Positions 10,257-56,097 of a stretch of DNA of 64,000 nt are shown here, in pieces. Origin of the DNA: a virus (Duplodnaviria; Heunggongvirae; Uroviricota; Caudoviricetes). Numbering within the stretch: position 1 is the stretch's first letter; every line of letters starts with the position of its first letter. The position numbers and the translations under genes were made by a program. The notes under the pieces were generated by a model. The model saw only the letters and a list, made by a program, of their open reading frames with translations, was not told where the DNA came from and did no database searches. The DNA is taken from positions 103,707 through 167,706 of IMG/VR virus record IMGVR_UViG_3300033146_002139. One strand, given 5' to 3'.

Positions 10257-10295
10257 GACACATCCTTTACGTAAGTTATTGTAATAGTAATTTTA

Positions 10296-11477
10296 TTAAA
10301 TCATTGAAATTTTAACCGGGTTAGCCACGAACCCTATATCGGATACAAAATTATCTCCGATTACTTTTCTTAAAATATTTGTTGCTCCGTTCCAGTCTGC
10401 ATTCACTAATTTATTGATACTTGACTGAAATAATCCTCGCTTAATTCTTTTACCTTTATACTTCTTGTGCTTACCTATCTTTTCAAGAGCTAAAGCATCA
10501 CATTTACTGGTATAGCTTTCTTCATTTCTTATCACTTTAATTCCAATTTCTTCTGATTTATACTCTAATTGCTGAATAAATCGCAAATAAGGGATGTTTA
10601 CAAAGTTTTGATTATTAACCTTACCAATGTTAGCATTTTGTTTCCAGCCTTGATTATAGCCAACTACAATATTTTTAATATCATTCTCCAAACAGTAGTT
10701 AATTATATATCTTGAGCTTTTATGCAGGTAATCATTAATCTTGTTGTTCCTTTTTAAAGTTAATCTGTTAATTCTATTAGATAATTGCTTATCGCCTACA
10801 AAACTCTGTAATTTAGCTTTCTTTTTATTGTAGTATTGATTTATGGATTTTAATGGTTTGCCATTACCAATTATAGGTTTTAAACCTGCATTGGTTGAAG
10901 TTGCAAATAAATTATTAACTCCTAAATCAAGACTGATGTATAAATCTTCGTTTAGATTTTCATAGGCTTTTACCTCCTTTTTGTAAACTATTTCAATAAT
11001 ATTATATCCAACTCTAGGAAGTATCCTAACTTGATTTACATTATTTACTTTAGTCTTTAATGGATTTATATTAGATTTTTTAGGAAACAATATAAATCCA
11101 TTTTTAAGTTTAACTTGCTGATTAGTAAAGATAATAATATTTTTACCGTTTTTATCTTTATACTTTGGTATTCTAGGTTTAGCTTTAAACTTCTTTGGAT
11201 TCTTAAAAAAAGCTTTTTCTGCTTTAATAAAAGACTTCCAGTTTTTAAATAAAACTTTAATTATTTGCTGAGATGTTTGAGCAAGTAAAGCTCTGTAATC
11301 GGACTGGTTCTCTTTAGCTAATTGAGTTGTTAAGGTATATTCTGACAATAAGTTACCATTACCTATAAACTCTTGACGAATTAAGTAATTACAGTAGTTG
11401 TATAAATTCTTGGATAAGAAATGTAAGCTATCCATATTTGAATTTTGTTTTACAATATGTCTCTCAACTCTTTGCAT
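10296..11477 (-). CDS. tnpB: TnpB-like protein (IS200/IS605 OrfB family), apparently lacking the RuvC-II Glu and the zinc finger
   Basis: N-terminal OrfB_IS605 region (QRVERHIV...LYNYCNYLIRQ), RuvC-I ISLDLGVNNLFAT and RuvC-III NADWNGATNIL are present. At the RuvC-II position it has NIVVGYNQGW where the paralogues have IIIETLDLK / LYFETLDIK / ISIEDLKIK. The C-terminus has a single Cys instead of CxxC..CxxC. Confidence 0.75.
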   Translation of the reverse strand: MQRVERHIVKQNSNMDSLHFLSKNLYNYCNYLIRQEFIGNGNLLSEYTLTTQLAKENQSDYRALLAQTSQQIIKVLFKNWKSFIKAEKAFFKNPKKFKAKPRIPKYKDKNGKNIIIFTNQQVKLKNGFILFPKKSNINPLKTKVNNVNQVRILPRVGYNIIEIVYKKEVKAYENLNEDLYISLDLGVNNLFATSTNAGLKPIIGNGKPLKSINQYYNKKKAKLQSFVGDKQLSNRINRLTLKRNNKINDYLHKSSRYIINYCLENDIKNIVVGYNQGWKQNANIGKVNNQNFVNIPYLRFIQQLEYKSEEIGIKVIRNEESYTSKCDALALEKIGKHKKYKGKRIKRGLFQSSINKLVNADWNGATNILRKVIGDNFVSDIGFVANPVKISMI

Positions 11478-11611
11478 TATTCAGAAAGTCCTTTTAATCT
11501 TAAGTAAGCAGATTTTGTTAATCCAAGTTTTTCAGCTTTTTTAGTTATTATAGTATCCTCTTCTTTTGACACTCTAATCCTAAGTATTTTTTCTCTCTTA
11601 TTTTTTTTCAT
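11477..11611 (-). CDS. ribbon-helix-helix (MobC/CopG-like) mini-protein coupled to tnpB
   Basis: My own reverse-complement translation gives MKKNKREKILRIRVSKEEDTIITKKAEKLGLTKSAYLRLKGLSE (44 aa). The stop overlaps the tnpB ATG (TAATG). Confidence 0.55.
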   Translation of the reverse strand: MKKNKREKILRIRVSKEEDTIITKKAEKLGLTKSAYLRLKGLSE

Positions 11612-11689
11612 CTATACCCCTTGTGTACCACAAAGATACCACAAATATTACAGTTGTCAAGCTTTTTATTAAAAATTATAATGTCGCAG

Positions 11690-12070: not shown

Positions 12071-12529
12071 TTATTCATATTTCCTCCCTTCTTTAACAGA
12101 ATTGATTAAAACTTCTATATACTCTCTATCTTCATCTGAAATGTATGATTTTTCGTATTCTCCATACGACCCTTTTTTGCAGACTATCATCCATATTTTA
12201 TCTATCGCTATTTCGTAGTCGTCTGTATTTATATCTTGCTTTTCTGTTTGAGCTGTTGAGATATACTTTTCATCTTTATGGTCGTTGTCAAAATCGTTTT
12301 CAGCATTATGCTTATTTGAATATTTTCTGTACCACTTAGCATAGTCGCTATCTTTTTCAGCGGTTTCGTACTGCCTAAGTGCCTGACCTTTATTACTCAT
12401 TATAAACTCTTTTGCAGCTGCTTCATCAGTATGTATTTGGAAAGTTAAACACGCAGGTATAGCAACAGCGGCTAAAATAGCTACGATAACAGCAATAACC
12501 ATTACTTCGATTAGTGTAAATCCTTTCAT
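12071..12529 (-). CDS. type IV pilin-like protein (prepilin-type N-terminal cleavage/methylation motif)
   Basis: MKGFTLIEVMVIAVIVAILAAVAIPA has a canonical class III signal (G|FTLIE) plus a hydrophobic helix; 152 aa. Confidence 0.55.
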   Translation of the reverse strand: MKGFTLIEVMVIAVIVAILAAVAIPACLTFQIHTDEAAAKEFIMSNKGQALRQYETAEKDSDYAKWYRKYSNKHNAENDFDNDHKDEKYISTAQTEKQDINTDDYEIAIDKIWMIVCKKGSYGEYEKSYISDEDREYIEVLINSVKEGRKYE

Positions 12530-19385: not shown

Positions 19386-20642
19386 TTAATTCTCCAATTC
19401 TATAAGATATTTTATTGTTGTCTGATTTCCTCTGTAGACAATCATTTCATTATTCTTTAAATCTATTCCTCCATGCGCGAAAACAGAATCATAGTCTCCT
19501 TTATTTTTTAATGTGTTAGCTGAAAGATTATAACAGCTTGAATCGTGTTTATGTATATCCATTTGCTTTCCAGTGTGAACTTTAAATACCGCCATAAATC
19601 CCGTATTATCACTACCACCTGACCAATAAGAACCTCTTAAAGATGTATATCCAAGAGATTTTCTTGCTTTATCTGCAAAGTATATCCCATCACCAAACAT
19701 AGAACCTGTGTAAACTGCAGAAGATGGTCTTATTAAAAGTCCTGTCTTCATTATATTTATAAAGTTCTCATTCCTGGAGCCGTGGAATAACAATGCTGTC
19801 GTTTTATCTTTGGAATCGGCAATGTTTTTATTAAAAACTTTTAATGTAGCTTTATTTGTAACTTCGTATGCCGTTTTAAACTTGTTAGATATTCCGCCAA
19901 GATGTTTTTTAATTTCAACTTCCTGTTTTGGATTGATTGTACTAACAGAAATACCAAGGACATCCAACATTGTTTTGTTGTCTAAAGTTTCTCCGGTTTC
20001 TTCTTCAGCCTCTAGTATCCCTACTTTTGTTGCCATAGAATCAAGATTGTCCTGTTCTTGTATAAGCATTTTTTTTATTTCAGCTACATTTTTTCTTAAA
20101 ATACCTGCCGTTTCTTCTATGAGATGGTCTGATACTCTCCCCATTCTTCGAGGTATTACCTGAAATAGGTCTGTAAGTGTTTCGTTGAAAAAGGTTACTT
20201 CTCTGCCTGTTTTAGCGTTAGAAAATAAGATATTTAGTAGTCTTTGTGCTTCGTCAACTTGCGACTGAGTAACAGACTCGGCAGATACAGTATAATTCGC
20301 TGCCACAGACTTGTTGGTATAATTCATTAATTGGATTATCAATTTTTCTATAACGGCGTTAGGAATTGGAGTATATCCAGATGATTTCGAGACAACCTTA
20401 ATCGAACGTCTTTCTGTTTCATCTTTATATCCTTTTGCTATTTTAGACTTATATACTTTATCCCATTTGTACATAGGGTAAATCTTCTCAGCCATACTAG
20501 CCCCATATCTTCCATACTCGGCTCTAAATCTGTCTCCGGTGATTTCTGTCATTCTATAAATCTTGTTGTTGTTTCTTCCCCCTGTTCCGTTTACCATTAT
20601 TAGCTCTACTGCTTGTCCATTCTCCACGTTTCCTGCTAACAA
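19386..20642 (-). CDS. PARP-like ADP-ribosyltransferase (WGR domain + helical region + H-Y-E catalytic domain)
   Basis: WGR-like N-terminus (KIYRMTEITGDRFRAEYGRYGAS...KWDKVYKSKIAKGYKDET). Catalytic LLFHGSRNENFINIMKTGLL (His-Gly-Ser), GSMFGDGIYFADKARKS (Tyr) and NNEMIVYRGNQ (Glu) match the PARP1-type H-Y-E signature. Confidence 0.75.
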   Translation of the reverse strand: MLAGNVENGQAVELIMVNGTGGRNNNKIYRMTEITGDRFRAEYGRYGASMAEKIYPMYKWDKVYKSKIAKGYKDETERRSIKVVSKSSGYTPIPNAVIEKLIIQLMNYTNKSVAANYTVSAESVTQSQVDEAQRLLNILFSNAKTGREVTFFNETLTDLFQVIPRRMGRVSDHLIEETAGILRKNVAEIKKMLIQEQDNLDSMATKVGILEAEEETGETLDNKTMLDVLGISVSTINPKQEVEIKKHLGGISNKFKTAYEVTNKATLKVFNKNIADSKDKTTALLFHGSRNENFINIMKTGLLIRPSSAVYTGSMFGDGIYFADKARKSLGYTSLRGSYWSGGSDNTGFMAVFKVHTGKQMDIHKHDSSCYNLSANTLKNKGDYDSVFAHGGIDLKNNEMIVYRGNQTTIKYLIELEN

Positions 20643-20753
20643 AAATTTACATAAATATAAACTTTTGAGTTTTACTGCTTCATCGTACTCGATTTCAATA
20701 TGATTCTCTCTACTCTCGTTGATTTTAATACTCCGCAGTCGTTAATTTCCTTA

Positions 20754-21896
20754 TTAGCCTAAGGTATTATATTTTACACAATTCTTAATATTGATACTTG
20801 CATTCAAATCTCTGTCCATTGAAAAACCACATTTGCAATTATATGTTCTATCTGTGAGCTTTAAGTCTCTTTTTATACTTCCACATTTAGAACAAGTTTT
20901 ACTACTTGGAAACCATTTGTCTATTATTCTTAGCTCAATATTATATTTTTTGCATTGTTGAGTAAGAAACTCTCTAAAATAATAAAACATTTGGTCTTTA
21001 ATTGCTTTTGATAAATGCTTATTTTTCAACATACTTTTAATTTTCAAATCTTCAATACTAATAAATTTTGGGTTTAGACTAACCAGTGAATTTACTACAA
21101 ATCTTACACATTCGACTCTAATATTGCTTAAGCGATAATGTAATCTTTGAACTCTTAATTTGTTTTTATATATGTTTCTGCTAGACTCTCCTTTTGTCTT
21201 AGTTTTAAATTTACGACTTAATTGTCGCTGTGATTTTTTTAATTTCTTTTCTAATCTTTTTATTTTCTTAGTTTTGTTTATATTTTTAAAGAATTCACCC
21301 TCACTTGTAACCGCAAATTCTTTAATTCCTAAATCGATTCCGATAGCTTTAGTTTTCTTTTTTGGATTCATCTTTTTGGATTCTTCCTCAACTAAAACAC
21401 TTACAAAGTATCTATCAGCTATTCGAGATACAGTTCCGGACTTAACTTTAGAATTTAAGGGAATATATCCAAATTCTTTTAATCTTACAAATCCTAATGT
21501 GGGGATTTTAATTCTATGTCTTTCTAAAGTCCAATCATTTTTATTGTTCTTAGGTAGGTACATCTTGACTTTGCTATCTTTCTTTTTAAATCTTGGAAAT
21601 TTAGACTGTTTTTTAAAAAACTTCTTAAATGCCTTTTCTCCATTGAAAATAGACTGCTTTACAGATTTACTACTAACTTCTTTTATCCAGGAAAATTCCT
21701 TGTTAAATAATAGAAAATTATTATTAAGCCACTTGCTGAAGCTCATTGCAGATACAAATCTTTGTTCTTTTTCGTAAATCTCTTTATTGTATTTCAAGTA
21801 AAAATTATAAATAAATCTACAAGTCCCAAGAGTTTTATGCACTTTTTCTTTCTGCTTATCGTTTAGCTTTATTTCTATTTTATAGGATTTTAGCAT
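20754..21896 (-). CDS. tnpB: TnpB (OrfB, RuvC-like RNA-guided nuclease family)
   Basis: OrfB N-terminal domain, RuvC-I IGIDLGIKEFAVT, RuvC-II ISIEDLKIKSM, CSKCGS...CKCGF zinc finger, and RuvC-III DRDLNASINI. Confidence 0.8.
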   Translation of the reverse strand: MLKSYKIEIKLNDKQKEKVHKTLGTCRFIYNFYLKYNKEIYEKEQRFVSAMSFSKWLNNNFLLFNKEFSWIKEVSSKSVKQSIFNGEKAFKKFFKKQSKFPRFKKKDSKVKMYLPKNNKNDWTLERHRIKIPTLGFVRLKEFGYIPLNSKVKSGTVSRIADRYFVSVLVEEESKKMNPKKKTKAIGIDLGIKEFAVTSEGEFFKNINKTKKIKRLEKKLKKSQRQLSRKFKTKTKGESSRNIYKNKLRVQRLHYRLSNIRVECVRFVVNSLVSLNPKFISIEDLKIKSMLKNKHLSKAIKDQMFYYFREFLTQQCKKYNIELRIIDKWFPSSKTCSKCGSIKRDLKLTDRTYNCKCGFSMDRDLNASINIKNCVKYNTLG

Positions 21897-22307
21897 CTAA
21901 AACTCTTTTGAAATTAAGTCAAGACTTTTAGTAATTTTAAATGCTGTATTATTCTCTGCGTTTTCGGCTTTTACTTTATACTTTGAGATAAAAGCTCCTT
22001 TCTCTAGTATGCCTATTTTTAGATAACCATCTTTATATTCTCCAAAAGCAGTACAATTATCATCTCCTACATTGATACTAAAGCCTGAAAATGTAAAAAC
22101 ATCTTCAGAAATTCTTGTTACAAGGTTCTTGTGTAGCATTGCATAGCCATGTACTCCTCCCATGTAGTCAAAATACTGAGACTCTGAATAATATCTAGTA
22201 CCACCGTCTGTTATTTTGACTGGAATTAAAGAACGGTTTTTATGCCAAGTCCTTAAAGTCTTGGATGTGACACCTATTTTTTTTGCAAATTTACCTGATG
22301 AAAACAT
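21897..22307 (-). CDS. MerR-type HTH protein resembling the N-terminal DNA-binding domain of IS607 TnpA but without a serine-recombinase catalytic domain
   Basis: KFAKKIGVTSKTLRTWHKNRSLIPVKITDGGTRYY (MerR-like HTH). The rest (136 aa in total) has no S-recombinase motif. It abuts tnpB (stop to start 21897/21896). Confidence 0.5.
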   Translation of the reverse strand: MFSSGKFAKKIGVTSKTLRTWHKNRSLIPVKITDGGTRYYSESQYFDYMGGVHGYAMLHKNLVTRISEDVFTFSGFSINVGDDNCTAFGEYKDGYLKIGILEKGAFISKYKVKAENAENNTAFKITKSLDLISKEF

Positions 22308-22392
22308 TTGTTCCTCCTATTTTATTTAAAGATACAACAAAAGGATATAAAAGTCAAGGTTTTTTTAAATAAGTATAGATTTGTTTCCTCCT

Positions 22393-24669
22393 TTATCTTT
22401 TGACGACTTCTCCTGGCTGATTTTTTAAGAAGTTGGAATTTTCATCGTTCTTCTTAACGGCAATGCCGGATTGGTCCTCGTACATTTCACGGGTTAATCG
22501 TTGGTCTTTCCCTTCCGTAATTATCCCTCTGTCTCTTATAAACTCTGTATACATAGCTCCTTTATAGCCTGATAATTTGTTTTTTGCATATTTTGTTTTT
22601 ACTGCAACCTTTTCTGCATCAATACCTATATCACTATTGAAGCATAATAGCCATACTAGATTTGCATTATAAGCAAATTTTCCTGTTTCCATAATATCAT
22701 CTAATGTAGGTTCTTTATACCTTCCATCGTGACTACTTTTCTTTCTTAATTCTACCGTAACAAATAATGGGATATTATAGGTATCTACTAAGTTTTTAAC
22801 TAGATTTGCTCTAAGTATATTTTGAAGTCTCAAATCCATATGTCCTACATCAAGATTAAAAACTCCATCTATAAGAACCATAACATCTTTACTTTTATAA
22901 CTTTCAATAGTCTTTTCTAGGTGGTATCTTAAAATGTCGTAGCTCACGATAGTTTCTATGTCAAATATCAACAATCTATCATTTAGCCATTCTTGTAATT
23001 TATTTGTCGCATATGTGTATATACCTCGAAGAGACATCATTTCTATTCTTGTTTCTGCATTAACACCATCATCAGCTTTTATTTCAAACTCTATATTAGC
23101 AACATCAGACAAATGTCTAGGTTTTTGTATTTGGTTTATAGTCAAATTTCCTTGACTTAAAATTGCTACAATTCTGTTTATCATTATGTCGAAATTATCA
23201 TCAAGTGAATATATTATTTGGTAGAGCTTTTTGTTTGATATCATTGCATCTACGAACACATTTAAAGAAATCTGTGTGTTGTGGGTAAGTATAAAATCTT
23301 TAGTAGCATAAAGATGGTCTTTTGAATCAACAGATATGCAAGTAGCATAATCATCAAAAGCATATTCTATTGATTTAATATAATTATATTCTCCCTTTTT
23401 TGCAGGTTTTACTTTTTCAGCTTTTCTTTTTAACTTAAAAGGATTTATGTCAGAGCTGAATTTTACATACACTCTGTAATTTATCCTAGTTTCCTTGTAA
23501 GAGCCATCTGCTAATTTATATCCTCCCATTCTTTGAGAGAAAGATGCTCTAGCCCCTAACGACCTAGCAATCTGAATTACATTGTCTTTTAGTTTTTCGG
23601 AAGTAGTAGAATACTCCGTAACTCTGCTACTCTCCACATAAGAACCGTCTGTATCAAACAACCCTCTTAGCATTTCTAGTCTATCATCTATTGTTGACAT
23701 TAGGTAATCCGACGGTATGAATTTTTCAAAACTTTTTTTATTTTTTAATCCATAGCTATCCAATACTCTTCTGAAGTCCTGTATTCCAGAGACGAAGTAA
23801 TCGCAATTATCTCCCTTTCTCTTTTTTAAAACCCCTTTGTGTTTTTTAAGTAGCATATTAAAGTCGTCAACCATCTCCTTGTCTAAAGATGCAAATCCAA
23901 AAAAATTCCCTGAATAACAACCATCTCCAAGAAACATCCCTAGTAAATAAGGGTGCATTTTTAATTCTTTTTTTGCATACTGAACAGGAGCTATTCTTTT
24001 TATTGCGTGTCTTTTTGCCCCGTTATTGCGGTGTAATGTTGCAACGATTTCTTTAGTAGTTTTTATAGAACCAGTCTTTTCTCCTTTTCTATTTTTATTG
24101 GTATAGGTGTACCATCTATGTTCTAAATCAGCAAAAGTAATAGACCCATCAGACATAGTAACTTTGTAAAGAGGTCTCTTATTTTGAGGGAAAACATCTA
24201 AAACTTTGGTAGGTTTTCCGTCTGACCCTATAACAAAATCTCCGACTTTTAAGTCCCCATTTTTTACATATCCATCTGGAGTTGGAATGAGTTCATTGTC
24301 CCAAAGCGCCTTTCCGATATTACTAGCCCCTCCTATAATGTATAGCCCATTCTGAACCCCATCCAATAAACCTTCTGTCTGACTAAATGTTCTCAGTTTA
24401 TGCCCTATTAAATCTTCTCTTGCATAATCCCTTGTTATCTTATCTGATAATCTTTTTTTCAAATCAGGGACTTCGTATTCGGTATAAGTACCTGCTACTG
24501 AATTTGAAAACAGGTTTGATACAAATTCTACATCGTTATCGCTAAACTCACTTACCTTTGTTCCGGTTTTCTTTTCTATAAAATCAACAAACTCTGATAC
24601 GAAAAACATCCTGTTTGTTTCTGGGATATCCTGCTTAGGAGTGTTGTTGAATATTTCAGCATGATTCAT
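22393..24669 (-). CDS. DnaB-like replicative helicase interrupted by an intein
   Basis: The Walker A GGASNIGK | TQISL is split by a 344-aa insert. The C-extein has Walker B VMVLIDGVFNLD and a RecA-fold C-terminal domain. ATGA-coupled to the primase. Confidence 0.8.
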   Translation of the reverse strand: MNHAEIFNNTPKQDIPETNRMFFVSEFVDFIEKKTGTKVSEFSDNDVEFVSNLFSNSVAGTYTEYEVPDLKKRLSDKITRDYAREDLIGHKLRTFSQTEGLLDGVQNGLYIIGGASNIGKALWDNELIPTPDGYVKNGDLKVGDFVIGSDGKPTKVLDVFPQNKRPLYKVTMSDGSITFADLEHRWYTYTNKNRKGEKTGSIKTTKEIVATLHRNNGAKRHAIKRIAPVQYAKKELKMHPYLLGMFLGDGCYSGNFFGFASLDKEMVDDFNMLLKKHKGVLKKRKGDNCDYFVSGIQDFRRVLDSYGLKNKKSFEKFIPSDYLMSTIDDRLEMLRGLFDTDGSYVESSRVTEYSTTSEKLKDNVIQIARSLGARASFSQRMGGYKLADGSYKETRINYRVYVKFSSDINPFKLKRKAEKVKPAKKGEYNYIKSIEYAFDDYATCISVDSKDHLYATKDFILTHNTQISLNVFVDAMISNKKLYQIIYSLDDNFDIMINRIVAILSQGNLTINQIQKPRHLSDVANIEFEIKADDGVNAETRIEMMSLRGIYTYATNKLQEWLNDRLLIFDIETIVSYDILRYHLEKTIESYKSKDVMVLIDGVFNLDVGHMDLRLQNILRANLVKNLVDTYNIPLFVTVELRKKSSHDGRYKEPTLDDIMETGKFAYNANLVWLLCFNSDIGIDAEKVAVKTKYAKNKLSGYKGAMYTEFIRDRGIITEGKDQRLTREMYEDQSGIAVKKNDENSNFLKNQPGEVVKR
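23278..24309 (-). mobile_element. class 3 intein with LAGLIDADG homing endonuclease (within the helicase gene)
   Basis: Ala1 start (ALWDNELIPTPDG), block B GSITFADLEHRW (T..H..W), LAGLIDADG motifs LLGMFLGDG and LRGLFDTDGS, block F DDYATCISV (Cys), block G FILTHN followed by Thr+1. Together these give the WCT triplet. Confidence 0.65.
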
Positions 24670-44723: not shown

Positions 44724-45923
44724 ATGTCAAAAATTTTTGTAACAGATAATAAAGACAAACCTTTGCTTCCAACAAGTGAAGCTAGAGCTAGATTGTTATT
44801 GAAAAATAATAAAGCTACTGTTGTGTCTATATTCCCTTTTACAATAAAACTTAAAAAAGAAATACTAAAACCAGCAGGAGAGTTTAAATGTGGAATAGAT
44901 GACGGAGCGAAATGGATAGGGATTGCAATTGCGAATAACAAAAAAGTTGTATTTGCAGGTAACATAAAACTGAGGCAAGATGTTAGCAGAAAAATACTTT
45001 CACGAAGTCAATATAGGCGAGCTAGGAGGACTAGAAATTTAAGACACCGTAAGGCTAGATTTTTAAACAGAGGCTCTAAAGGTTGGATTCCGCCAACAAT
45101 AAAACAAAAGAAAGATTCAGTTTTAAGAGTTATTGACTTTATGAAAAAACGATTAAACATAACCGAATGTGTTGTCGAACAGGGACAGTTCGATATTTCC
45201 TCGATGAGTGCAGGTTACAAGCTAACTGGGAAAGAATACCAATTAAGTCAATATAAAGGTAGTAACTTTAGAGAAAAAGTCCTTTGGAGAGATAAATTTG
45301 AATGTCAAAAATGCAAGTCAAAAGAGAGGCTTCAGGTACATCATATTACCTTCAAATCTAACGGTGGAACTAATATTGTTTCCAATGGAACAACTCTTTG
45401 TGAAAAGTGCCATAAATCCCTACACAATAAAGAGTGGGCATTAAAAAAGAAAGTAAAACACTTTAAATACCCAACTCATCTTCAGCAAGGAAAGAATTAT
45501 TTATTCTCTGAATTAAGTAAAAGGATTAGTAGTACAAGAATTTGTTTTGGCTGGATGACAAGTAAAAACAGAAAAGAATTGGGCTTAGAAAAAGACCATT
45601 ATTTGGACGCAAGTGCAATGATTAAAACAAACAAGTTCAATTGTACTCCTTATCAGATTAAGCCTAGAAGAAGCAAATTAAATATTAAAAGTGCAACTAA
45701 AAAATGTACAGAAAAAAACGGCTTTAGACATTTTGATATTGTTAAAAGCCATAATAGAAATCATGGAATTATTGTAGGCTCAATACGAAGCTTGAAGAAA
45801 TCGGCAATAACCTTAAGAACCTCTTTTGATGATAATTTCGCAGTAAGTTATAATAAAAGTAAAATACTAGAGCGACCTAAAGGTTTGATATTTATAAATC
45901 TACAGGTTATACAAAAACTATAA
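44724..45923 (+). CDS. iscB: IscB (OMEGA RuvC-HNH RNA-guided nuclease, Cas9-ancestor family)
   Basis: PLMP domain (NKDKPLLPTSEARARLL), RuvC-I CGIDDGAKWIGIAI, Arg-rich bridge helix RSQYRRARRTRNLRHRKARF, HNH CQKCKS...LQVHHITFKSNGGTNIVSNGTTLCEKCHKSLHN, RuvC-III KDHYLDA. Confidence 0.8.
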   Translation: MSKIFVTDNKDKPLLPTSEARARLLLKNNKATVVSIFPFTIKLKKEILKPAGEFKCGIDDGAKWIGIAIANNKKVVFAGNIKLRQDVSRKILSRSQYRRARRTRNLRHRKARFLNRGSKGWIPPTIKQKKDSVLRVIDFMKKRLNITECVVEQGQFDISSMSAGYKLTGKEYQLSQYKGSNFREKVLWRDKFECQKCKSKERLQVHHITFKSNGGTNIVSNGTTLCEKCHKSLHNKEWALKKKVKHFKYPTHLQQGKNYLFSELSKRISSTRICFGWMTSKNRKELGLEKDHYLDASAMIKTNKFNCTPYQIKPRRSKLNIKSATKKCTEKNGFRHFDIVKSHNRNHGIIVGSIRSLKKSAITLRTSFDDNFAVSYNKSKILERPKGLIFINLQVIQKL

Positions 45924-49029: not shown

Positions 49030-49455
49030 ATGAGGATAATATCTAAAACATACGACTATTACGATGGCGGAGCTACATACGGAATAGACAAGTCAATACT
49101 ATATCTTAGAAAAAGAGAAGAGATAGAAATGAAGAATAGGATTATCCTCGGAGACTTCAAGCTAATAGGATTTTGCGGAGAGATATACCTTTTTTCTATA
49201 AAGGGAGAGGGTAAAAAGAAAGTTGTTCTTTTTGGTAAAGACGCTGTCAGTAACGAGATAGAAGAATATACAGGTTACAACAACGAAACATTATACAGGA
49301 CTGTAGAAAGAAATAAAGGCTATTATCATCATATACACTCCAAGAGATATGATGAATTAAAAAATGATTCCTTTATAAAAAGTTTATTCCTAACCTACAA
49401 AACTCCTGTTTTTTTAATAGACCTTAAAAGAAATCCCTTGCTTTTTTTGGGGTGA
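49030..49455 (+). CDS. hypothetical protein
   Basis: 141 aa. Confidence 0.5.
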   Translation: MRIISKTYDYYDGGATYGIDKSILYLRKREEIEMKNRIILGDFKLIGFCGEIYLFSIKGEGKKKVVLFGKDAVSNEIEEYTGYNNETLYRTVERNKGYYHHIHSKRYDELKNDSFIKSLFLTYKTPVFLIDLKRNPLLFLG

Positions 49456-49468
49456 TAGAAAATAATAC

Positions 49469-49497
49469 TTGACATTTGTTTATACTTACCTTATATT
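49469..49497 (+). promoter_or_regulatory. TTGACA-17-TATATT promoter of the RHH-tnpB unit
   Basis: ttgacatttgtttatacttaccttatatt lies 27 bp upstream of the RHH ATG. Confidence 0.5.
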
Positions 49498-49523
49498 ACA
49501 GATATACAAAATAAGGAGCTATA

Positions 49524-49652
49524 ATGTCAAGAACTGAAACAATAATAATTAGACTAACAAAAGAAGAGAAGTCTAATATTGAAAGAAAAGCTAAAGAGCA
49601 AGGATTGTCGGTCTCATCTTACCTAAGAAGCTTAGGGATGAGAGATAAATAA
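49524..49652 (+). CDS. ribbon-helix-helix (MobC/CopG-like) mini-protein coupled to tnpB
   Basis: Translated by hand: MSRTETIIIRLTKEEKSNIERKAKEQGLSVSSYLRSLGMRDK; AAGGAG RBS; the stop TAA overlaps the tnpB ATG. Confidence 0.6.
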   Translation: MSRTETIIIRLTKEEKSNIERKAKEQGLSVSSYLRSLGMRDK

Positions 49653-50746
49653 TGATTAAAAAGCTTAACAAAGCATATAAATTTAGATTATATCCAAATG
49701 CGACACAGCAAGAGTATTTTGCAAAGACATTTGGAAGTGCTAGGTTTATCTACAATAAAATGTTAAGCGATAAAATTGATTATTATAAGCTAGAGAAGAA
49801 AACCTTAAACAATACTCCTGCTCAATATAAAAAAGAGTTTGAGTGGTTGAAAGAAGTGGATTCATTAGCTTTAGCAAATAGTCAAATGCAATTAAAAACT
49901 GCATTTATGAATTTTTTCAAAAGAAAAGGTGTTGGATTTCCTAATTTCAAAAGTAGAAGAAATAAAAAGTCATATAAAACTAATAATCTTAATGGTACAA
50001 TTAAAGTTGAATTAAATAATGTAAAACTGCCAAAGATAGGTTTTGTTAAAGCAGTAACACATCGTAGAGTTGAAGGTAAAATAAAAAGTGCAACAATATC
50101 TCAAACTCCAACTGGCAAATATTTTGTATCAATTTTAGTTGAATATGAAAAAGAGATAAAGGAAGTAAAAAGTAATAAAGTAATAGGATTAGATTTTTCA
50201 ATGAAAGATTTATATGTAAGTAGTGATAATGAGAAAGCCAATCAGCATCATTATTTTAGAAAATCTTTAGATAAAATCAAATTTGCTCAACGAAGTTTAT
50301 CAAGAAAAGTAAAAGGAAGTAGTAATCGTAACAAACAAAGACTTAGATTAGCTAAAGTTCACGAGAAAGTTAGCAACCAAAGAAACGACTTTTTGCATAA
50401 AACATCTACTTATTTATCAAAGAAATACGATGCTATAATAATTGAAACTCTTGATTTGAAAGAGATGAGCAAACACTTGAAGCTTGGAAAATCAGTACAC
50501 GATAATTCTTGGGCTACATTTGCAGCATTATTAAAATACAAATCAGAGCAATCAGGAAAGCAGTTAGTTCAAATTGATAAGTGGTTTCCAAGTAGCAAAA
50601 AATGTTCTAATTGTGGAAATGTAAAAGAGAAGTTAGAGTTGTCAGAACGAACATACAATTGTGGAAGCTGTAATCTTAGTATTGATAGGGATTACAATGC
50701 TTCATTAAATATTAAAATGGCTGGGACAGTCAAGTTAGCTTGGTAA
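49652..50746 (+). CDS. tnpB: TnpB (OrfB, RuvC-like RNA-guided nuclease family)
   Basis: RuvC-I IGLDFSMKDLYVSS, RuvC-II AIIIETLDLKEM, zinc finger CSNCGN...CGSCN, RuvC-III DRDYNASLNI. Confidence 0.8.
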   Translation: MIKKLNKAYKFRLYPNATQQEYFAKTFGSARFIYNKMLSDKIDYYKLEKKTLNNTPAQYKKEFEWLKEVDSLALANSQMQLKTAFMNFFKRKGVGFPNFKSRRNKKSYKTNNLNGTIKVELNNVKLPKIGFVKAVTHRRVEGKIKSATISQTPTGKYFVSILVEYEKEIKEVKSNKVIGLDFSMKDLYVSSDNEKANQHHYFRKSLDKIKFAQRSLSRKVKGSSNRNKQRLRLAKVHEKVSNQRNDFLHKTSTYLSKKYDAIIIETLDLKEMSKHLKLGKSVHDNSWATFAALLKYKSEQSGKQLVQIDKWFPSSKKCSNCGNVKEKLELSERTYNCGSCNLSIDRDYNASLNIKMAGTVKLAW

Positions 50747-51185
50747 GTATCTTTCGTTAGAAAGACCGACCCAAGAAGCCCCTTCCTTCAGGTGGGTGAG
50801 TTCACTAGAAGATGTTATGTATAAACTAAGTTAATACTAAATCCAGTACTTAAGGATTATAGTTTTTTCAAGCTATTTGAGACAACTCAAGCTTTCCAAG
50901 AAATAGAAATGTACTTGTCAAATGTACTAGTATCTGACGTAATGAAAGAACCAAAGTTTACAAGTGAAGACATCGGAACTAGCAAAGGATTTAATAAATA
51001 TTCATTTAGAAATACAAAGAAAGAACCTAAAAAATTTTAGGAGGAATTATGACTTTTTACAATCCAGACGAAGTCGTGAAAAAAGAAAGCCCAATGCTTT
51101 AGCTTTGTGGATGATTTTTTGAAAAAGGTCTTGACTTTTGTATTTTAATGTATTATCTTTATGTTATACCAATATAGGAGTTGTA

Positions 51186-51314
51186 ATGAAACGAACTGAA
51201 ACAATAATAATTAGGTTAACAAAAGAAGAAAAAGCTAATATTGAAAGAAAAGCTAAAGAGCAAGGTTTGTCTTTATCGTCTTATTTAAGAAGTTTAGGGA
51301 TGAAAGATAAATAG
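51186..51314 (+). CDS. ribbon-helix-helix mini-protein coupled to tnpB (paralogue of the 49524 copy)
   Basis: MKRTETIIIRLTKEEKANIERKAKEQGLSLSSYLRSLGMKDK. A TTGACT promoter-like element lies at 51131. The stop TAG overlaps the GTG start of tnpB. Confidence 0.6.
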   Translation: MKRTETIIIRLTKEEKANIERKAKEQGLSLSSYLRSLGMKDK

Positions 51315-52432
51315 TGAAAACCTATAAATATAAAATATACAATAGTAAAAAGAATAAGAAATTATGCCAAAAGATTAATATTGCTGGTGTGGTTTTTAAT
51401 TATTGTATTGCTCTTCAAAGAGGTTATTATAGGTTTTATGGTAAACAATTAAATATTTATCAACTACAAAAACACTTAACTAAAAAGAAAAAATTAAATA
51501 AGTATTTCTTTTGGAAAGAACTAAGCTCTCAAACTATTCAAGATATAACCGAGCGAATAGATAAATCGTATAAACAGTTTTACCGTAATTTAAAAAAGGG
51601 AGTTAAAACAAGCCCTCCTAAATTCAAAAAAGTTAAGAAATACAAATCTATAACTTTCAAGAATACTGGATATAAATTCGATGGTAATAAAATTGCAATA
51701 CAAAAAGATTTATTTAAGTTTTCAAATAGTAGAAAGTTTCAGGGGAATATTAAACGAGTAATAGTAAAGCGAAACAATCTAGGAATGATGTTTTTATATG
51801 TAATAACAGATTTTGTCGATATTCGAGCAATCAAGTCAGTTAAAAGTGCTGGTTGCGATTTTGGATTAAAACAATTTTTGTCGTTTTCAGATAAAAGCAC
51901 GATTGATTCACCTTTATTTTTCAAAAAGAATTTAAAGAAAGTAAAAAGATTATCTAAAAAATTTTCCAAGAAAAAGAAAGGTAGTAACAACAGGAAACGA
52001 GCAAAATATAATCTTGGCAAGTTAAACTATAAAATAATGAATAAAAGAACAGATTTTCATTATAAACTAGCAAAAGATTTAGCGATAGACTATGGTATTT
52101 TATACTTTGAAACACTGGATATTAAATCAATGCAGAGACGATGGGGAAGGAAAATAAATGACTTAGGATTTTATAATTTTCTTCAAATACTAAAACAACA
52201 AGGATTAAAATACGGTTGCGAAGTAGTCCAAATTGATAAGTGGTTTCCAAGTAGTAAAACTTGCTCAGGTTGTGGTTATATAAAGAAAGACTTAACTCTA
52301 AAAGATAGAGCGTATAACTGTCCTGAATGTAAATTATCAATCGACCGAGATTTGAATGCATCAATAAATATAAAACGAGAAGGGGTATCTTCTCTTAAAA
52401 CCAAGACAGTAAAACTTTCGAGTATGTCTTAA
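51314..52432 (+). CDS. tnpB: TnpB (OrfB family), GTG start
   Basis: RuvC-I AGCDFGLKQFLSFS, RuvC-II ILYFETLDIKSM, zinc finger CSGCGY...CPECK, RuvC-III DRDLNASINI. Confidence 0.8.
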   Translation: MKTYKYKIYNSKKNKKLCQKINIAGVVFNYCIALQRGYYRFYGKQLNIYQLQKHLTKKKKLNKYFFWKELSSQTIQDITERIDKSYKQFYRNLKKGVKTSPPKFKKVKKYKSITFKNTGYKFDGNKIAIQKDLFKFSNSRKFQGNIKRVIVKRNNLGMMFLYVITDFVDIRAIKSVKSAGCDFGLKQFLSFSDKSTIDSPLFFKKNLKKVKRLSKKFSKKKKGSNNRKRAKYNLGKLNYKIMNKRTDFHYKLAKDLAIDYGILYFETLDIKSMQRRWGRKINDLGFYNFLQILKQQGLKYGCEVVQIDKWFPSSKTCSGCGYIKKDLTLKDRAYNCPECKLSIDRDLNASINIKREGVSSLKTKTVKLSSMS

Positions 52433-52447
52433 TGGTTTTAGAATCCC

Positions 52448-52711
52448 TTGGCTTCAGCCTTGGGAGTATGTCAAAATCCAGACCTTAGCGATTGCAATCT
52501 TTACGATAGCGACGAGGTTACAGAATTAAAAAATAAAATAGCAGTGCAAAAAAACACTATTGAAAATCTTGAAAGTCTTATCAGACTATTAAAAGGTGAT
52601 ATGTCAAGAGTTGAGGGAGGAGAAGCAGTAATGTCAAAAAAACATAGCAACTATAAAGAATTGCCTGCGGTAAATCCAGATAGAATAAAAAAACTAAAGT
52701 GGGGATTTTAA
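52448..52711 (+). CDS. questionable ORF overlapping the predicted tnpB omega-RNA region
   Basis: 87-aa ORF; its 5' part lies in the GC-rich segment right after the tnpB stop. Confidence 0.3.
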   Translation: MASALGVCQNPDLSDCNLYDSDEVTELKNKIAVQKNTIENLESLIRLLKGDMSRVEGGEAVMSKKHSNYKELPAVNPDRIKKLKWGF

Positions 52712-54216: not shown

Positions 54217-54245
54217 TTGACAAACGCCTTTTTTTGTAGTATATT
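54217..54245 (+). promoter_or_regulatory. TTGACA-17-TATATT promoter upstream of the solo RHH copy
   Basis: ttgacaaacgcctttttttgtagtatatt. Confidence 0.5.
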
Positions 54246-54268
54246 TGTAGGAAGTAAACAGGAGGATT

Positions 54269-54425
54269 GATGAGTAAAGTCAATACAACAAAAAATAAAA
54301 CGAAAGAAATACGTGTTAGAGTCTCAGACGAAGAATACGAAATTATACTAAAAAAGGCAAACGAACTAGGTTTGACAAAATCTGGATATCTAAGGTTGAA
54401 AGGGTTGGGAGGTAAAGAGTGGTAA
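54269..54425 (+). pseudogene. frameshifted copy of the RHH mini-gene (no tnpB downstream)
   Basis: The N-terminal part MSKVNTTKNKTKEIRVRVSDEEYEIILKKA is in one frame. The RHH-like C-terminus NELGLTKSGYLRLKGLGGKEW is in the +1 frame after an A-run (ggcaaaacgaac has one extra A relative to the frame needed). Confidence 0.45.
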
Positions 54426-54724
54426 CACTGGCAATAGAAACAAGTATAAACAAATTTATAGAGCTATTCCTGAAAAAAGAAGGAGTAGATAGGTGTGATT
54501 GGGAATACGACTGGGTGGCAGATAGAGTTGCCGGCATTGTAAATATTGGAGATAATTTTTTCGCATTAGAAGATGTTATTCTTGACATGAAAACAAAACA
54601 ACCAAGCGGAAACATCTTCAATTGGCAAGATTCTATAACAGACATGTCCATAAAGGATAGTAACTTTAAGTATCAGAGTTATAATACTTGGATTACAAAT
54701 GGAAATAAACTACTGGAGATATAA
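54419..54724 (+). CDS. hypothetical protein (GTG start overlapping the RHH remnant)
   Basis: 101-aa ORF. Confidence 0.45.
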   Translation: MVTLAIETSINKFIELFLKKEGVDRCDWEYDWVADRVAGIVNIGDNFFALEDVILDMKTKQPSGNIFNWQDSITDMSIKDSNFKYQSYNTWITNGNKLLEI

Positions 54725-55569
54725 TGAAATTTATAGAAAAGAAAAAAATAAAATCTACTTTTGATATTGATTTTGTAAGTGAGATTAAAAAGCAAAAAGC
54801 AGAAGATAGGATGTATTGCGTTACAAAAAAAGCTGAAGGGCATCAAATATCATCGTATTACAATGGTGATGAGTTTAAATTCGCAGATAAAGACGGTTTT
54901 TCAAAAATGAATAGTATTCCAAAAACTACTTTATCAGAAATAATCGCATTCCATAAGTGGTTATGGGGGTTTTTTCGTGGCAGTGTTGAGGAGTTGGTAT
55001 TACACTCTACAATAAAAGATTCGTCTGTAAATGTGTTTGATATGTCAGTTGACGGCAAATATATTTCTATGCATGGATTTACAAAGGCGATAAGAAGATT
55101 AAACAGTACCAAAGAACATAAGAACATATCCTATACAAAAATTTTTTTGATAGGGATTATTGATGACTGCATAAAATATACAAAACAAGAACCCGGAACA
55201 GATTTTATTGTAAAGCTATATGAAACAGACATTGCTTTAAATAATGGAGAAAGAGTTATACTACAAAGTAAGCAAAACAAGAAAGAGACGGTCAAGAATT
55301 TAACTCCGATGCAAGACTTAACAGCATATAAGATATTTTTATCTATAACGGAAGATAATTTAAAAGCAGTTGTTTCAGGGATAAAAAAAATAAAAACAAA
55401 AAAAGTAACCGCAATATCAAAAGCTTTTGCAAAAAAAGTCATAACAGAATGGAAAGAAAATAACGATATGGGAGAGGATTTTAATATCGTATCTAAAGCA
55501 GTTTCTGAAAAATGCAAGGATTTGGTTAAAAAAAATTATGATGATATTATAGAGGGTATTTTCATATGA
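54724..55569 (+). CDS. hypothetical protein
   Basis: 281 aa. Confidence 0.5.
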   Translation: MKFIEKKKIKSTFDIDFVSEIKKQKAEDRMYCVTKKAEGHQISSYYNGDEFKFADKDGFSKMNSIPKTTLSEIIAFHKWLWGFFRGSVEELVLHSTIKDSSVNVFDMSVDGKYISMHGFTKAIRRLNSTKEHKNISYTKIFLIGIIDDCIKYTKQEPGTDFIVKLYETDIALNNGERVILQSKQNKKETVKNLTPMQDLTAYKIFLSITEDNLKAVVSGIKKIKTKKVTAISKAFAKKVITEWKENNDMGEDFNIVSKAVSEKCKDLVKKNYDDIIEGIFI

Positions 55570-55781: not shown

Positions 55782-55860
55782 GGGGATGGATTGGTTTCGA
55801 TTGGATGTAAAGCTTACAAGAGCAAATCTCAAGACAGCGGTTCGAATCCGCTCATCTCCA
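55782..55860 (+). tRNA. 79-nt tRNA-like / tmRNA tRNA-like-domain-like element (perfect acceptor + T-arm, non-canonical D/anticodon region)
   Basis: GGGGATG...AGCGG-TTCGAAT-CCGCT-CATCTCC-A gives a 7-bp acceptor stem and a canonical T-arm. The 5' end GGGGAUGGAUUGGUUUCGAUUGG resembles the tmRNA 5' end GGGGCUGAUUCUGGAUUCGACGGG. I could not find a 5-7-5 anticodon arm. Confidence 0.4.
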
Positions 55861-56097
55861 TCAATAGAGGCGAGAATGAAAGAAAGTGTGTTAATTAAGA
55901 GCAAGCCAAATTACTATGCAATAGAATACAGGAAAGGGACGGTGCTTTTGCAAAGAAAAGTGGTCGAGTGCGGGACAGACCCTGCAATATCAACTGAAGA
56001 AGAGGTTATTTTATATTTATGTAAAAAAATCGAAGAGTTAGAATGTAAAACAGGAGACAAAAAGTGAAGAATATATTTTGTTCAAAAAAGGAAATGT

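Follow-up and report, generated by a model that had tools for sequence, protein, structure and literature searches.

What does a gene for a 42-amino-acid (aa) ribbon-helix-helix (RHH) protein do when it occupies the usual transposase slot, directly in front of the nuclease gene tnpB? The question is raised by two adjacent units in a stretch of 64,000 nucleotides (nt), positions 103,707 to 167,706 of the IMG/VR virus record IMGVR_UViG_3300033146_002139. We call this 64-kb stretch the window, and it is the scope of our within-genome searches on a contig of ~168 kb. We think that the RHH is probably an autorepressor of the element's own promoter. We favor that answer because of the RHH fold, the repeats on the -10 box, the position of the RHH inside a mobile unit, and its recurrent adjacency to TnpB, and also because published RHHs of IS605 elements, named Arc, bind their promoter and repress it. 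The two units are made up as follows.

49421..50805, + strand: unit 1, a non-autonomous element of the IS200/IS605 type, with left end, promoter P1, rhh1, tnpB1, omega-RNA and right end
49421..49468, + strand: left end of unit 1; homology to a second copy, on contig L143, begins at ACCTTAAAAGAAATCCC (49421), upstream of the promoter
49469..49497, + strand: P1 promoter TTGACA-17-TATATT, matching 11/12 consensus positions, the top site in 49300-52700 and kept in L143
49475..49507, + strand: candidate operator of the RHH1/2 type, three 11-bp units with ends TATAC, TATAT and TATAC, across the -10 box
49524..49652, + strand: rhh1, a 42-aa NikA/Arc-like RHH (Pfam PF21983, E = 5.6 × 10−13)
49652..50746, + strand: tnpB1, 364 aa, ISDra2-like, with a start that overlaps the rhh1 stop (TAATG)
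50720..50805, + strand: 3' portion of the omega-RNA scaffold, with the unit 1 right end, from the consensus of 23 TnpB1-like viral loci
50806..50821, + strand: putative guide of the unit 1 omega-RNA, placed directly 3' of the conserved scaffold end
51080..52474, + strand: unit 2, IS605-type, limits approximate, with left end, promoter P2, rhh2, tnpB2 and right end
51131..51159, + strand: P2 promoter TTGACT-17-TATCTT, matching 9/12 consensus positions
51137..51169, + strand: candidate P2 operator, 11-bp-phased units TGTAT, TTATCT and TTATAC
51186..51314, + strand: rhh2, 42 aa (Pfam E = 1.3 × 10−13), 90% identical to RHH1
51314..52432, + strand: tnpB2, 372 aa, with a GTG start that overlaps the rhh2 stop (TAGTG)

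A first-pass annotation made from the letters of the DNA had described this layout of a 42-aa RHH and an overlapping tnpB, and the open reading frames (ORFs) are as it said, as is the contrast between near-identical RHHs and TnpBs that share only 32.5% identity. Its single promoter for both units, TTGACA-17-TATATT, fits P1 but not P2. A six-frame phmmer search of the 64 kb finds exactly four RHH copies, pairing as RHH1/2 and RHH3/4. The third had been placed in another unit of the same design at 10296-11611 on the - strand, where indeed we find rhh3 overlapping tnpB3. The fourth had been called solo; it is present, but its end overlaps a 101-aa ORF (54419-54724) belonging to phrog_35741, a phage family of unknown function. 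The features of the second RHH pair are as follows.

10289..11685, - strand: unit 3, the rhh3-tnpB3 element, with limits taken from a second copy on L149; the left limit is at least 11684, where the L149 contig ends
11477..11611, - strand: rhh3, 44 aa, with a 1-nt overlap with tnpB3
11626..11645, - strand: candidate operator for RHH3, two copies of TTTGTGGTA offset by 11 bp that flank the -10 box TATCTT (11633-11638)
10296..11477, - strand: tnpB3, 393 aa, with Pfam TnpB domains
54217..54425, + strand: RHH4 cassette in an operon without TnpB, with promoter TTGACA-17-TATATT at 54217-54245, a TTTGTAG repeat at 54233-54251 and rhh4 at 54270-54425

Codon comparisons indicate that the RHHs are real, translated proteins under purifying selection. 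The ratio of non-synonymous to synonymous change (dN/dS) is 0.085 between RHH1 and RHH2, at dS 0.67, and 0.098 between RHH3 and its L149 copy, and synonymous sites are saturated between RHH1 and its L143 copy, with 21 of ~26.7 synonymous sites changed and only 2 non-synonymous changes. All four RHHs are above the gathering threshold (27 bits) of the NikA-like Pfam family PF21983, RHH1 scoring 49.3 bits, RHH2 51.3 and RHH4 45.7 (E = 10−12 to 10−13), with RHH3 (P0004) precomputed as a member. The AlphaFold2 model of RHH1, made with 43 homologues, has a predicted local distance difference test (pLDDT) score of 88.5 and the beta-alpha-alpha order of an RHH, being extended over residues 1-12 with helices at 13-25 and 30-39; it is a single-chain prediction that ends at helix 2. 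Foldseek gives as top folds NikA, P22 Arc (template modeling (TM) score 0.81, root-mean-square deviation 1.0 Å), AtaR, KacA and CopG, with TM scores of 0.69-0.87 for NikA, Arc, CopG and AtaR and probabilities up to 1.00; its matches also include the RHH antitoxin TacA. Among solved proteins, NikA comes nearest in sequence profile (E = 2.4 × 10−6), with CopG far behind. The broad RHH family amounts to 10,364 cluster representatives at E ≤ 10−3. A tblastn search of RHH1 and RHH3 against phages and plasmids found nothing beyond one match to a classical NikA-like protein with its relaxase, IMG/VR scans with RHH alignments A1 and A7 found no relatives, and scans of GTDB genomes with alignment A1 and a DNA pattern for KSAYLRLKGL found nothing relevant.

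The promoters of the RHH genes offer candidate operators. In P1, its L143 copy and P2 there are three 11-bp units ending in TTATAY. The RHH3/4-type promoters have two copies of a short motif, offset by 11 bp and flanking the -10 box; in the RHH3 promoter (P3) these are the exact 9-nt repeat listed above (shuffle P ~0.001) and in the RHH4 promoter (P4) TTTGTAG twice (shuffle P ~0.014), with imperfect versions at loci L149, L145, L153 and L155. Pooled over 12 RHH promoters, self-matching at offset 11 is 45.8%, versus 28-37% at the other offsets from 4 to 20, a signal reached in 0/5000 shuffles, and random segments of the window give 0.288 ± 0.024. The repeat sites of P3 and P4 are alike, and nowhere else in the 64 kb is there a site resembling them, which parallels RHH3 and RHH4 being mutually closest paralogues. 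Short promoter repeats phased by one helical turn are the classical arrangement for RHH repressors such as Arc, Mnt, CopG and omega.

In the autorepression that we consider probable, a sigma-70-type promoter would drive a bicistronic rhh-tnpB transcript that would also be the source of the 3' guide RNA, and the 1-nt overlap of stop and start would couple TnpB translation to RHH translation. The RHH of 42-44 aa would dimerise and occupy the 11-bp-phased direct repeats over the -10 box of its own promoter. Bound there, it would lower its own synthesis together with that of TnpB and the guide RNA, which amounts to negative autoregulation, and the outcome would be a short, capped burst of nuclease after infection, regardless of insertion site. 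What we show is the gene layout, coding selection on the RHH, its fold, its place inside the mobile unit, its recurrent adjacency to TnpB and the periodic repeats; RHH binding at the 11-bp repeats, repression, and co-transcription of rhh and tnpB are inferred. Several points weigh against this reading. The repeat units of the RHH1/RHH2 type are AT-rich and not individually significant. NikA, the closest relative with a name, serves the relaxosome as an accessory protein and is no repressor, and the Pfam Arc family is absent among the RHH matches at E ≤ 1. The DNA-contact residues N5, N7 and T9 of the tested Arc proteins differ from those predicted here, and a shared ancestry with these proteins is putative.

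Whether the RHH belongs to the element or to the phage can be judged from L143, a 2.6-kb metagenome contig whose positions 513-1918 correspond to window 49421-50813 at 82% nt identity. Its left flank is a TnpB2-like fragment, corresponding to window 51465-51739, and its right flank is a Dam-like methylase; the window has a homologue of this gene, but 32 kb away. Because L143 shares the whole block between different flanks, unit 1 is, on this alignment, mobile, with the promoter and rhh1 inside its boundaries. This is the placement of an IS605-associated Arc regulator, an RHH within an IS605-family element and adjoining tnpB. Unit 3 likewise appears mobile from L149, an internally deleted copy at 84-92% nt identity whose homology stops at 10289, 7 nt past the tnpB3 stop, with a different gene from there on. 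For unit 2, no second copy was found and an IMG/VR scan with TnpB2 gave no relatives, nor did an IMG/VR scan with a 141-aa ORF flanking unit 1; among INPHARED phages, megablast finds nothing that matches 49400-52600. At the ends themselves, the L143 left-end motif CCCCTTCCTTTAGGTGTGGGTAAAT resembles the right-end motif CCCTTTCCTTTAGGTGAGGGTAAAT, a likeness also found in IS200/IS605 elements. The unit 2 left-end motif, beginning AAAAAGAAAGCCC, aligns with the left ends of unit 1 and L143, and the unit 2 right end is GAATCCCTTGGCTTCAGCCTTGGGAGTATGTCAA. Folded as hairpins, left and right ends are no more stable than shuffled controls (z -1.2 to +0.7).

Some neighboring sequences run into these ends. 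The last ~35 nt of the 141-aa ORF (49030-49455, + strand) lie inside the unit 1 left end, and an 87-aa ORF (52448-52711, + strand) has its listed TTG start inside the unit 2 right end. Since flanking ORFs run into element ends, the insertions may have remodelled the termini of neighboring phage genes. On L143, the TnpB2-like fragment (236-511) is truncated at both its 5' and 3' sides and abuts the unit 1 copy, and TnpB elements appear to nest in or decay beside one another. The same unit 1 copy lies directly upstream of the start of the Dam-like methylase, and an AGGAG ahead of the ATG comes from its right end.

The first-pass annotation saw no HUH/Y1 TnpA and took the elements to be TnpA-less, with a small DNA-binding partner of their own, and both points are borne out. 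Profile hidden Markov models (HMMs) built from the genes beside related TnpBs detect no Y1 TnpA (best E = 0.17) and no IS607 recombinase (best E = 0.7) in the window, and the partner lies inside the element boundaries. The units are non-autonomous, transposase-less TnpB elements. Since the window is 64 kb of a ~168-kb contig, a TnpA could lie elsewhere on the contig. Another role for the RHH would be that of a transposition accessory, which near the left end might recruit or modulate a HUH TnpA acting in trans, or otherwise control excision or integration. NikA, MobC and TraY assist HUH relaxases at the origin of transfer (oriT) in this way, NikA is the best match of these RHHs in both Pfam and the Protein Data Bank (PDB), a classical 106-aa NikA-like relative (MT836882) adjoins a relaxase, and the candidate binding sites are 20-60 bp from the left-end motif. 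We consider an accessory of this kind unlikely, because what directly adjoins rhh is tnpB and neither a relaxase nor an oriT, the window as a whole yielded neither TnpA nor relaxase, and the repeats on the -10 box are in the position expected of a repressor. In addition, the same RHH type is found on IS607-type units, which use a serine recombinase as transposase instead of a HUH enzyme, and it also heads genes unrelated to transposition.

Units 1 and 2 align with each other over a 190-bp block, 49468-49655 versus 51130-51317, at 81% identity. The block is sharply bounded, reaching from the -35 box as far as the stop codon of the RHH. The second alignable stretch is a short conserved patch within tnpB, and elsewhere identity is 40-57%. 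Because such a bounded block joins TnpBs that are only 32.5% identical, we regard promoter plus RHH as a discrete cassette, and the alignment points to its having been swapped or kept as a whole, in addition to purifying selection. The likeness of the RHHs had earlier been put down to tighter constraint, and that is only half of the account: the low dN/dS agrees with it, and the block brings in the cassette.

The TnpBs of the window carry the Pfam domains OrfB_IS605 and TNB. TnpB1 matches the structures of ISDra2 TnpB (PDB 8h1j/8exa) with E = 3 × 10−71 and by this similarity is a close relative of it. The D-E-D triad and zinc finger are intact in TnpB1, TnpB2 and TnpB4, the last of these from a fourth unit described below, and the RuvC-III motif is SIDRD or SMDRD in these three and NAD in TnpB3. 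TnpB3 keeps the RuvC-I and RuvC-III aspartates and is without the canonical RuvC-II glutamate (VVGYNQGW) and the zinc finger, resembling clades with a rearranged catalytic site (Altae-Tran et al. 2023). IMG/VR contains 131 relatives of TnpB3, and those on viral contigs often adjoin IS607 serine recombinases. As to the guide RNA, 23 TnpB1-like viral loci share the pattern GAAGCC-stem-CTTTAG-stem-GGTAGTTCAC, followed by unrelated sequence. The unit 1 omega-RNA scaffold ends in the family-conserved ...GTTCAC, and because the conserved scaffold stops there in the family consensus, we put the right end at 50805 and let the putative guide begin at 50806. No omega-RNA family emerges from an Rfam E-value scan of 49400-52700, in which all matches are at chance level. 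Units 1 and 2 have the RuvC D-E-D residues and the 3' omega-RNA scaffold of IS200/IS605 elements.

The first-pass annotation overlooked the fourth TnpB, whose unit is as follows.

20672..22357, - strand: unit 4, with a TTGACT promoter, a gene (21897-22307, 136 aa) for a MerR-type helix-turn-helix (HTH) protein, tnpB4 (20754-21896) and a RAGATH-18 RNA (20672-20739)

TnpB4 has 380 aa and among the TnpBs of the window is nearest to TnpB1. The stop of the MerR-HTH gene abuts the tnpB4 start, and its product has no recombinase domain. The RNA 3' of tnpB4 is matched by Rfam at 57 bits, and RAGATH-18 is the guide RNA of IS607 TnpB (Ren et al. 2024, PMC11061315). Unit 4 looks like an IS607-type element with its serine recombinase replaced by, or reduced to, the HTH protein. 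With it, a small DNA-binding gene is found in the usual transposase slot for 4/4 TnpBs of the window. Immediately downstream of the RAGATH-18 RNA is a gene (19386-20642, - strand) for a 418-aa protein with the catalytic domain of a poly(ADP-ribose) polymerase (PARP)-type ADP-ribosyltransferase (E = 2.5 × 10−22).

The RHH could also be thought of as antitoxin-like, an inhibitor that binds TnpB or its ribonucleoprotein directly and blocks cleavage. The first-pass annotation had left regulator, antitoxin and targeting factor side by side; a regulator fits best, and the other two are disfavored. RHH antitoxins grip their toxins by a C-terminal tail, and these RHHs, 42-44 aa in total, are bare and have no such toxin-binding extension. 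Moreover, RHH1 and RHH2, 90% identical, pair with TnpBs of 32% identity, and the RHH3/4 type pairs with TnpB3-like genes, TnpB4-like genes, a LAGLIDADG enzyme and other genes that are not TnpB. The tight gene coupling does resemble that of toxin-antitoxin operons, the Foldseek matches do include AtaR, KacA and TacA, and direct inhibition has been proposed for archaeal RHH/MazE-TnpB pairs on the basis of AlphaFold co-folding (Altae-Tran et al. 2023, PMC10691335). The archaeal clade, however, has its RuvC-III aspartate changed to histidine, and this aspartate is kept in TnpB1, TnpB2 and TnpB4. We judge direct inhibition to be improbable at this locus.

How regularly RHH and TnpB are found together depends on the side from which one looks. 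From the RHH side, 17 close relatives have a readable context, and directly downstream is a TnpB in 9/17, a LAGLIDADG homing endonuclease in 1/17 and another phage or plasmid operon in 7/17.

TnpB-coupled RHHs (9): RHH1, RHH2, RHH3, the L143 copy, P0005 (a TnpB remnant), P0007, P0020, P0022 and P0030
LAGLIDADG-coupled RHH (1): P0027, in at least 24 contigs, beside a DNA ligase
RHHs heading other operons (7): RHH4, P0003, P0013, P0019, P0026, P0038 and P0041

The distance from RHH to TnpB in the nine coupled cases ranges from a 14-nt overlap to a gap of 3 nt, and the coupled TnpBs are of at least six lineages, including both IS605 and IS607 types. After P0007 come a TnpB4-like gene and a RAGATH-18 RNA (70 bits), after P0020 a TnpB3-like gene at 53% identity, and after P0022 and P0030 further, distinct TnpB lineages; locus L145 has RHH, TnpB and then RAGATH-18. 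Loci L156-L159 (for instance L156 2501-3383) have a 44-aa RHH of the same family overlapping a 251-aa LAGLIDADG-like gene beside a phage DNA ligase. From the TnpB side, we examined 142 IMG/VR loci with TnpB1-like or TnpB3-like genes, at 31-62% TnpB identity in the best-matching segment, and this RHH adjoins TnpB in 0/142. Several carry a Y1 TnpA or an IS607 recombinase upstream instead, and an HMM of the four RHHs finds two weak matches in these loci, neither of them TnpB-adjacent. Seen from the RHH, then, the association is strong, but seen from the TnpB it is rare. Inheritance of the RHH along the TnpB1 or TnpB3 lineages was considered and is ruled out by the lack of an adjacent RHH in the 142 loci.

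The survey also bears on the suspicion that RHH and TnpB are coincidental neighbors, the RHHs being ordinary early-gene regulators of the phage downstream of which TnpB elements happened to land. The seven RHHs that head TnpB-free operons would fit, and ordinary phage genes here are also preceded by similar TTGAC-type promoters. We find this very hard to credit, in that rhh and tnpB overlap by 1 nt and an IS left end would have no space between them, L143 has promoter, RHH and TnpB as a single block at a new location, and more than half of the surveyed relatives are coupled to TnpBs of such varied lineage. The TnpB-free cases do imply that the cassette is not TnpB-specific, because the RHH4 cassette heads the phrog_35741 ORF and a 281-aa ORF. 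The RHH4 operon (54217-55569, + strand) has the promoter and repeat design of unit 3, and its 281-aa ORF has no family match.

A bolder proposal, which we hold doubtful though worth stating, is that the ~190 bp of promoter, operator and RHH might be a portable module swapped among selfish phage nucleases, replacing the transposase and enabling spread without TnpA. If true, one module would serve at least six IS605/IS607 TnpB lineages and a LAGLIDADG homing endonuclease, and the TnpB elements would be self-timed RNA-guided homing cassettes spreading between co-infecting phages without TnpA.

The rest of the window, at 32.6% GC, has phage-like gene content, including DNA ligase, primase, a DnaB-like helicase with an intein, an HNH endonuclease, RtcB, a Dam-like methylase and a lysis amidase. 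The DnaB-like helicase (758 aa, 22393-24669, - strand) is split by a LAGLIDADG/Hint intein, which together with the HNH endonuclease (44724-45923) marks the genome as rich in selfish nuclease elements. A 152-aa protein (12071-12529, - strand) has at its N-terminus a methylation motif like that of type IV pilins (PF07963), an unusual feature for a region of phage replication genes. Rfam reports a transfer-messenger RNA (tmRNA) at 55782-55863 (+ strand) with 54.2 bits against a threshold of 47, in which only 82 nt stand for positions 1-374 of the model. With ARAGORN the whole window gives neither tmRNA nor tRNA, and the Rfam match may be spurious or a fragment that resembles a tRNA.

The locus is a compact natural test set for how TnpB is restrained, with three RHH-led units whose TnpBs are of different lineages, one MerR-led unit and one TnpB-free RHH cassette, and with candidate operators that are readable from the sequence. 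If autorepression is right, it extends Arc-type control of IS605 elements to phage-borne elements that lack a transposase and to IS607/RAGATH-18 units, and it suggests that promoter and RHH move as a module. Such cassettes could act as small self-limiting expression switches for TnpB genome editors. Current understanding is not overturned by any of this.

The RHH-TnpB pairing had been taken to lie outside known descriptions of IS605, and there the literature of 2023-2026 says otherwise, because the pairing is already known in it, as "Arc". Arc-like RHH ORFs beside TnpB and homing endonucleases were reported by Zedaveinyte et al. 2023 (10.1101/2023.11.20.567912), and Moon et al. 2026 (10.64898/2026.09.24.754181) used chromatin immunoprecipitation sequencing, reporters and mutagenesis in finding that Arc RHHs repress the IS605 promoter, including in elements of arc and tnpB only. 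The units here share with these regulators of IS605-family elements and IStrons an RHH of at most 50 aa inside an IS605-family element beside tnpB, links to homing endonucleases and to further mobile elements, and a site overlapping the promoter, which here is a candidate. In many published cases, arc goes with tnpA, and a bidirectional promoter separates it from a tnpB that points the other way, whereas rhh here is co-directional, in the tnpA slot, and overlaps the tnpB start. The Pfam family also differs, being the NikA-like PF21983, as do the predicted DNA-reading residues and the host, a large phage.

The RHH/MazE-TnpB systems (Altae-Tran et al. 2023, PMC10691335) also have a small RHH gene immediately upstream of tnpB and a long 3' region for the guide RNA. 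They are archaeal and non-mobile, with the RuvC-III change from D to H, and are interpreted as toxin-antitoxin systems, whereas the elements here are phage-borne, at least one unit is mobile by the evidence of L143, and the D-E-D residues are kept in TnpB1, TnpB2 and TnpB4. Compared with IS200/IS605 elements of the ISDra2 type, an RHH gene and a strong internal promoter stand in place of the Y1 TnpA. Unit 4 and L145 have TnpB followed by RAGATH-18 as in IS607 (PMC11061315), but the serine recombinase is replaced by the 136-aa MerR-HTH protein in unit 4 and by the RHH in L145. Compared with NikA and MobC, these RHHs have no relaxase or oriT context and are half the length, without the C-terminal domain. 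The regulators of Tn7-like transposons, discussed by Moon et al., are likewise small element-encoded repressors of a TnpB-derived effector, with MerR and RHH versions in sister systems; those act on Cas12k and TnsB, and the units here are TnpB insertion sequences. The present locus differs from what is published in details, namely the NikA-like Pfam family, the co-directional overlap in the transposase slot, the phage host, the sharply bounded promoter-RHH cassette across divergent TnpBs, and the extension to RAGATH-18/IS607 units.

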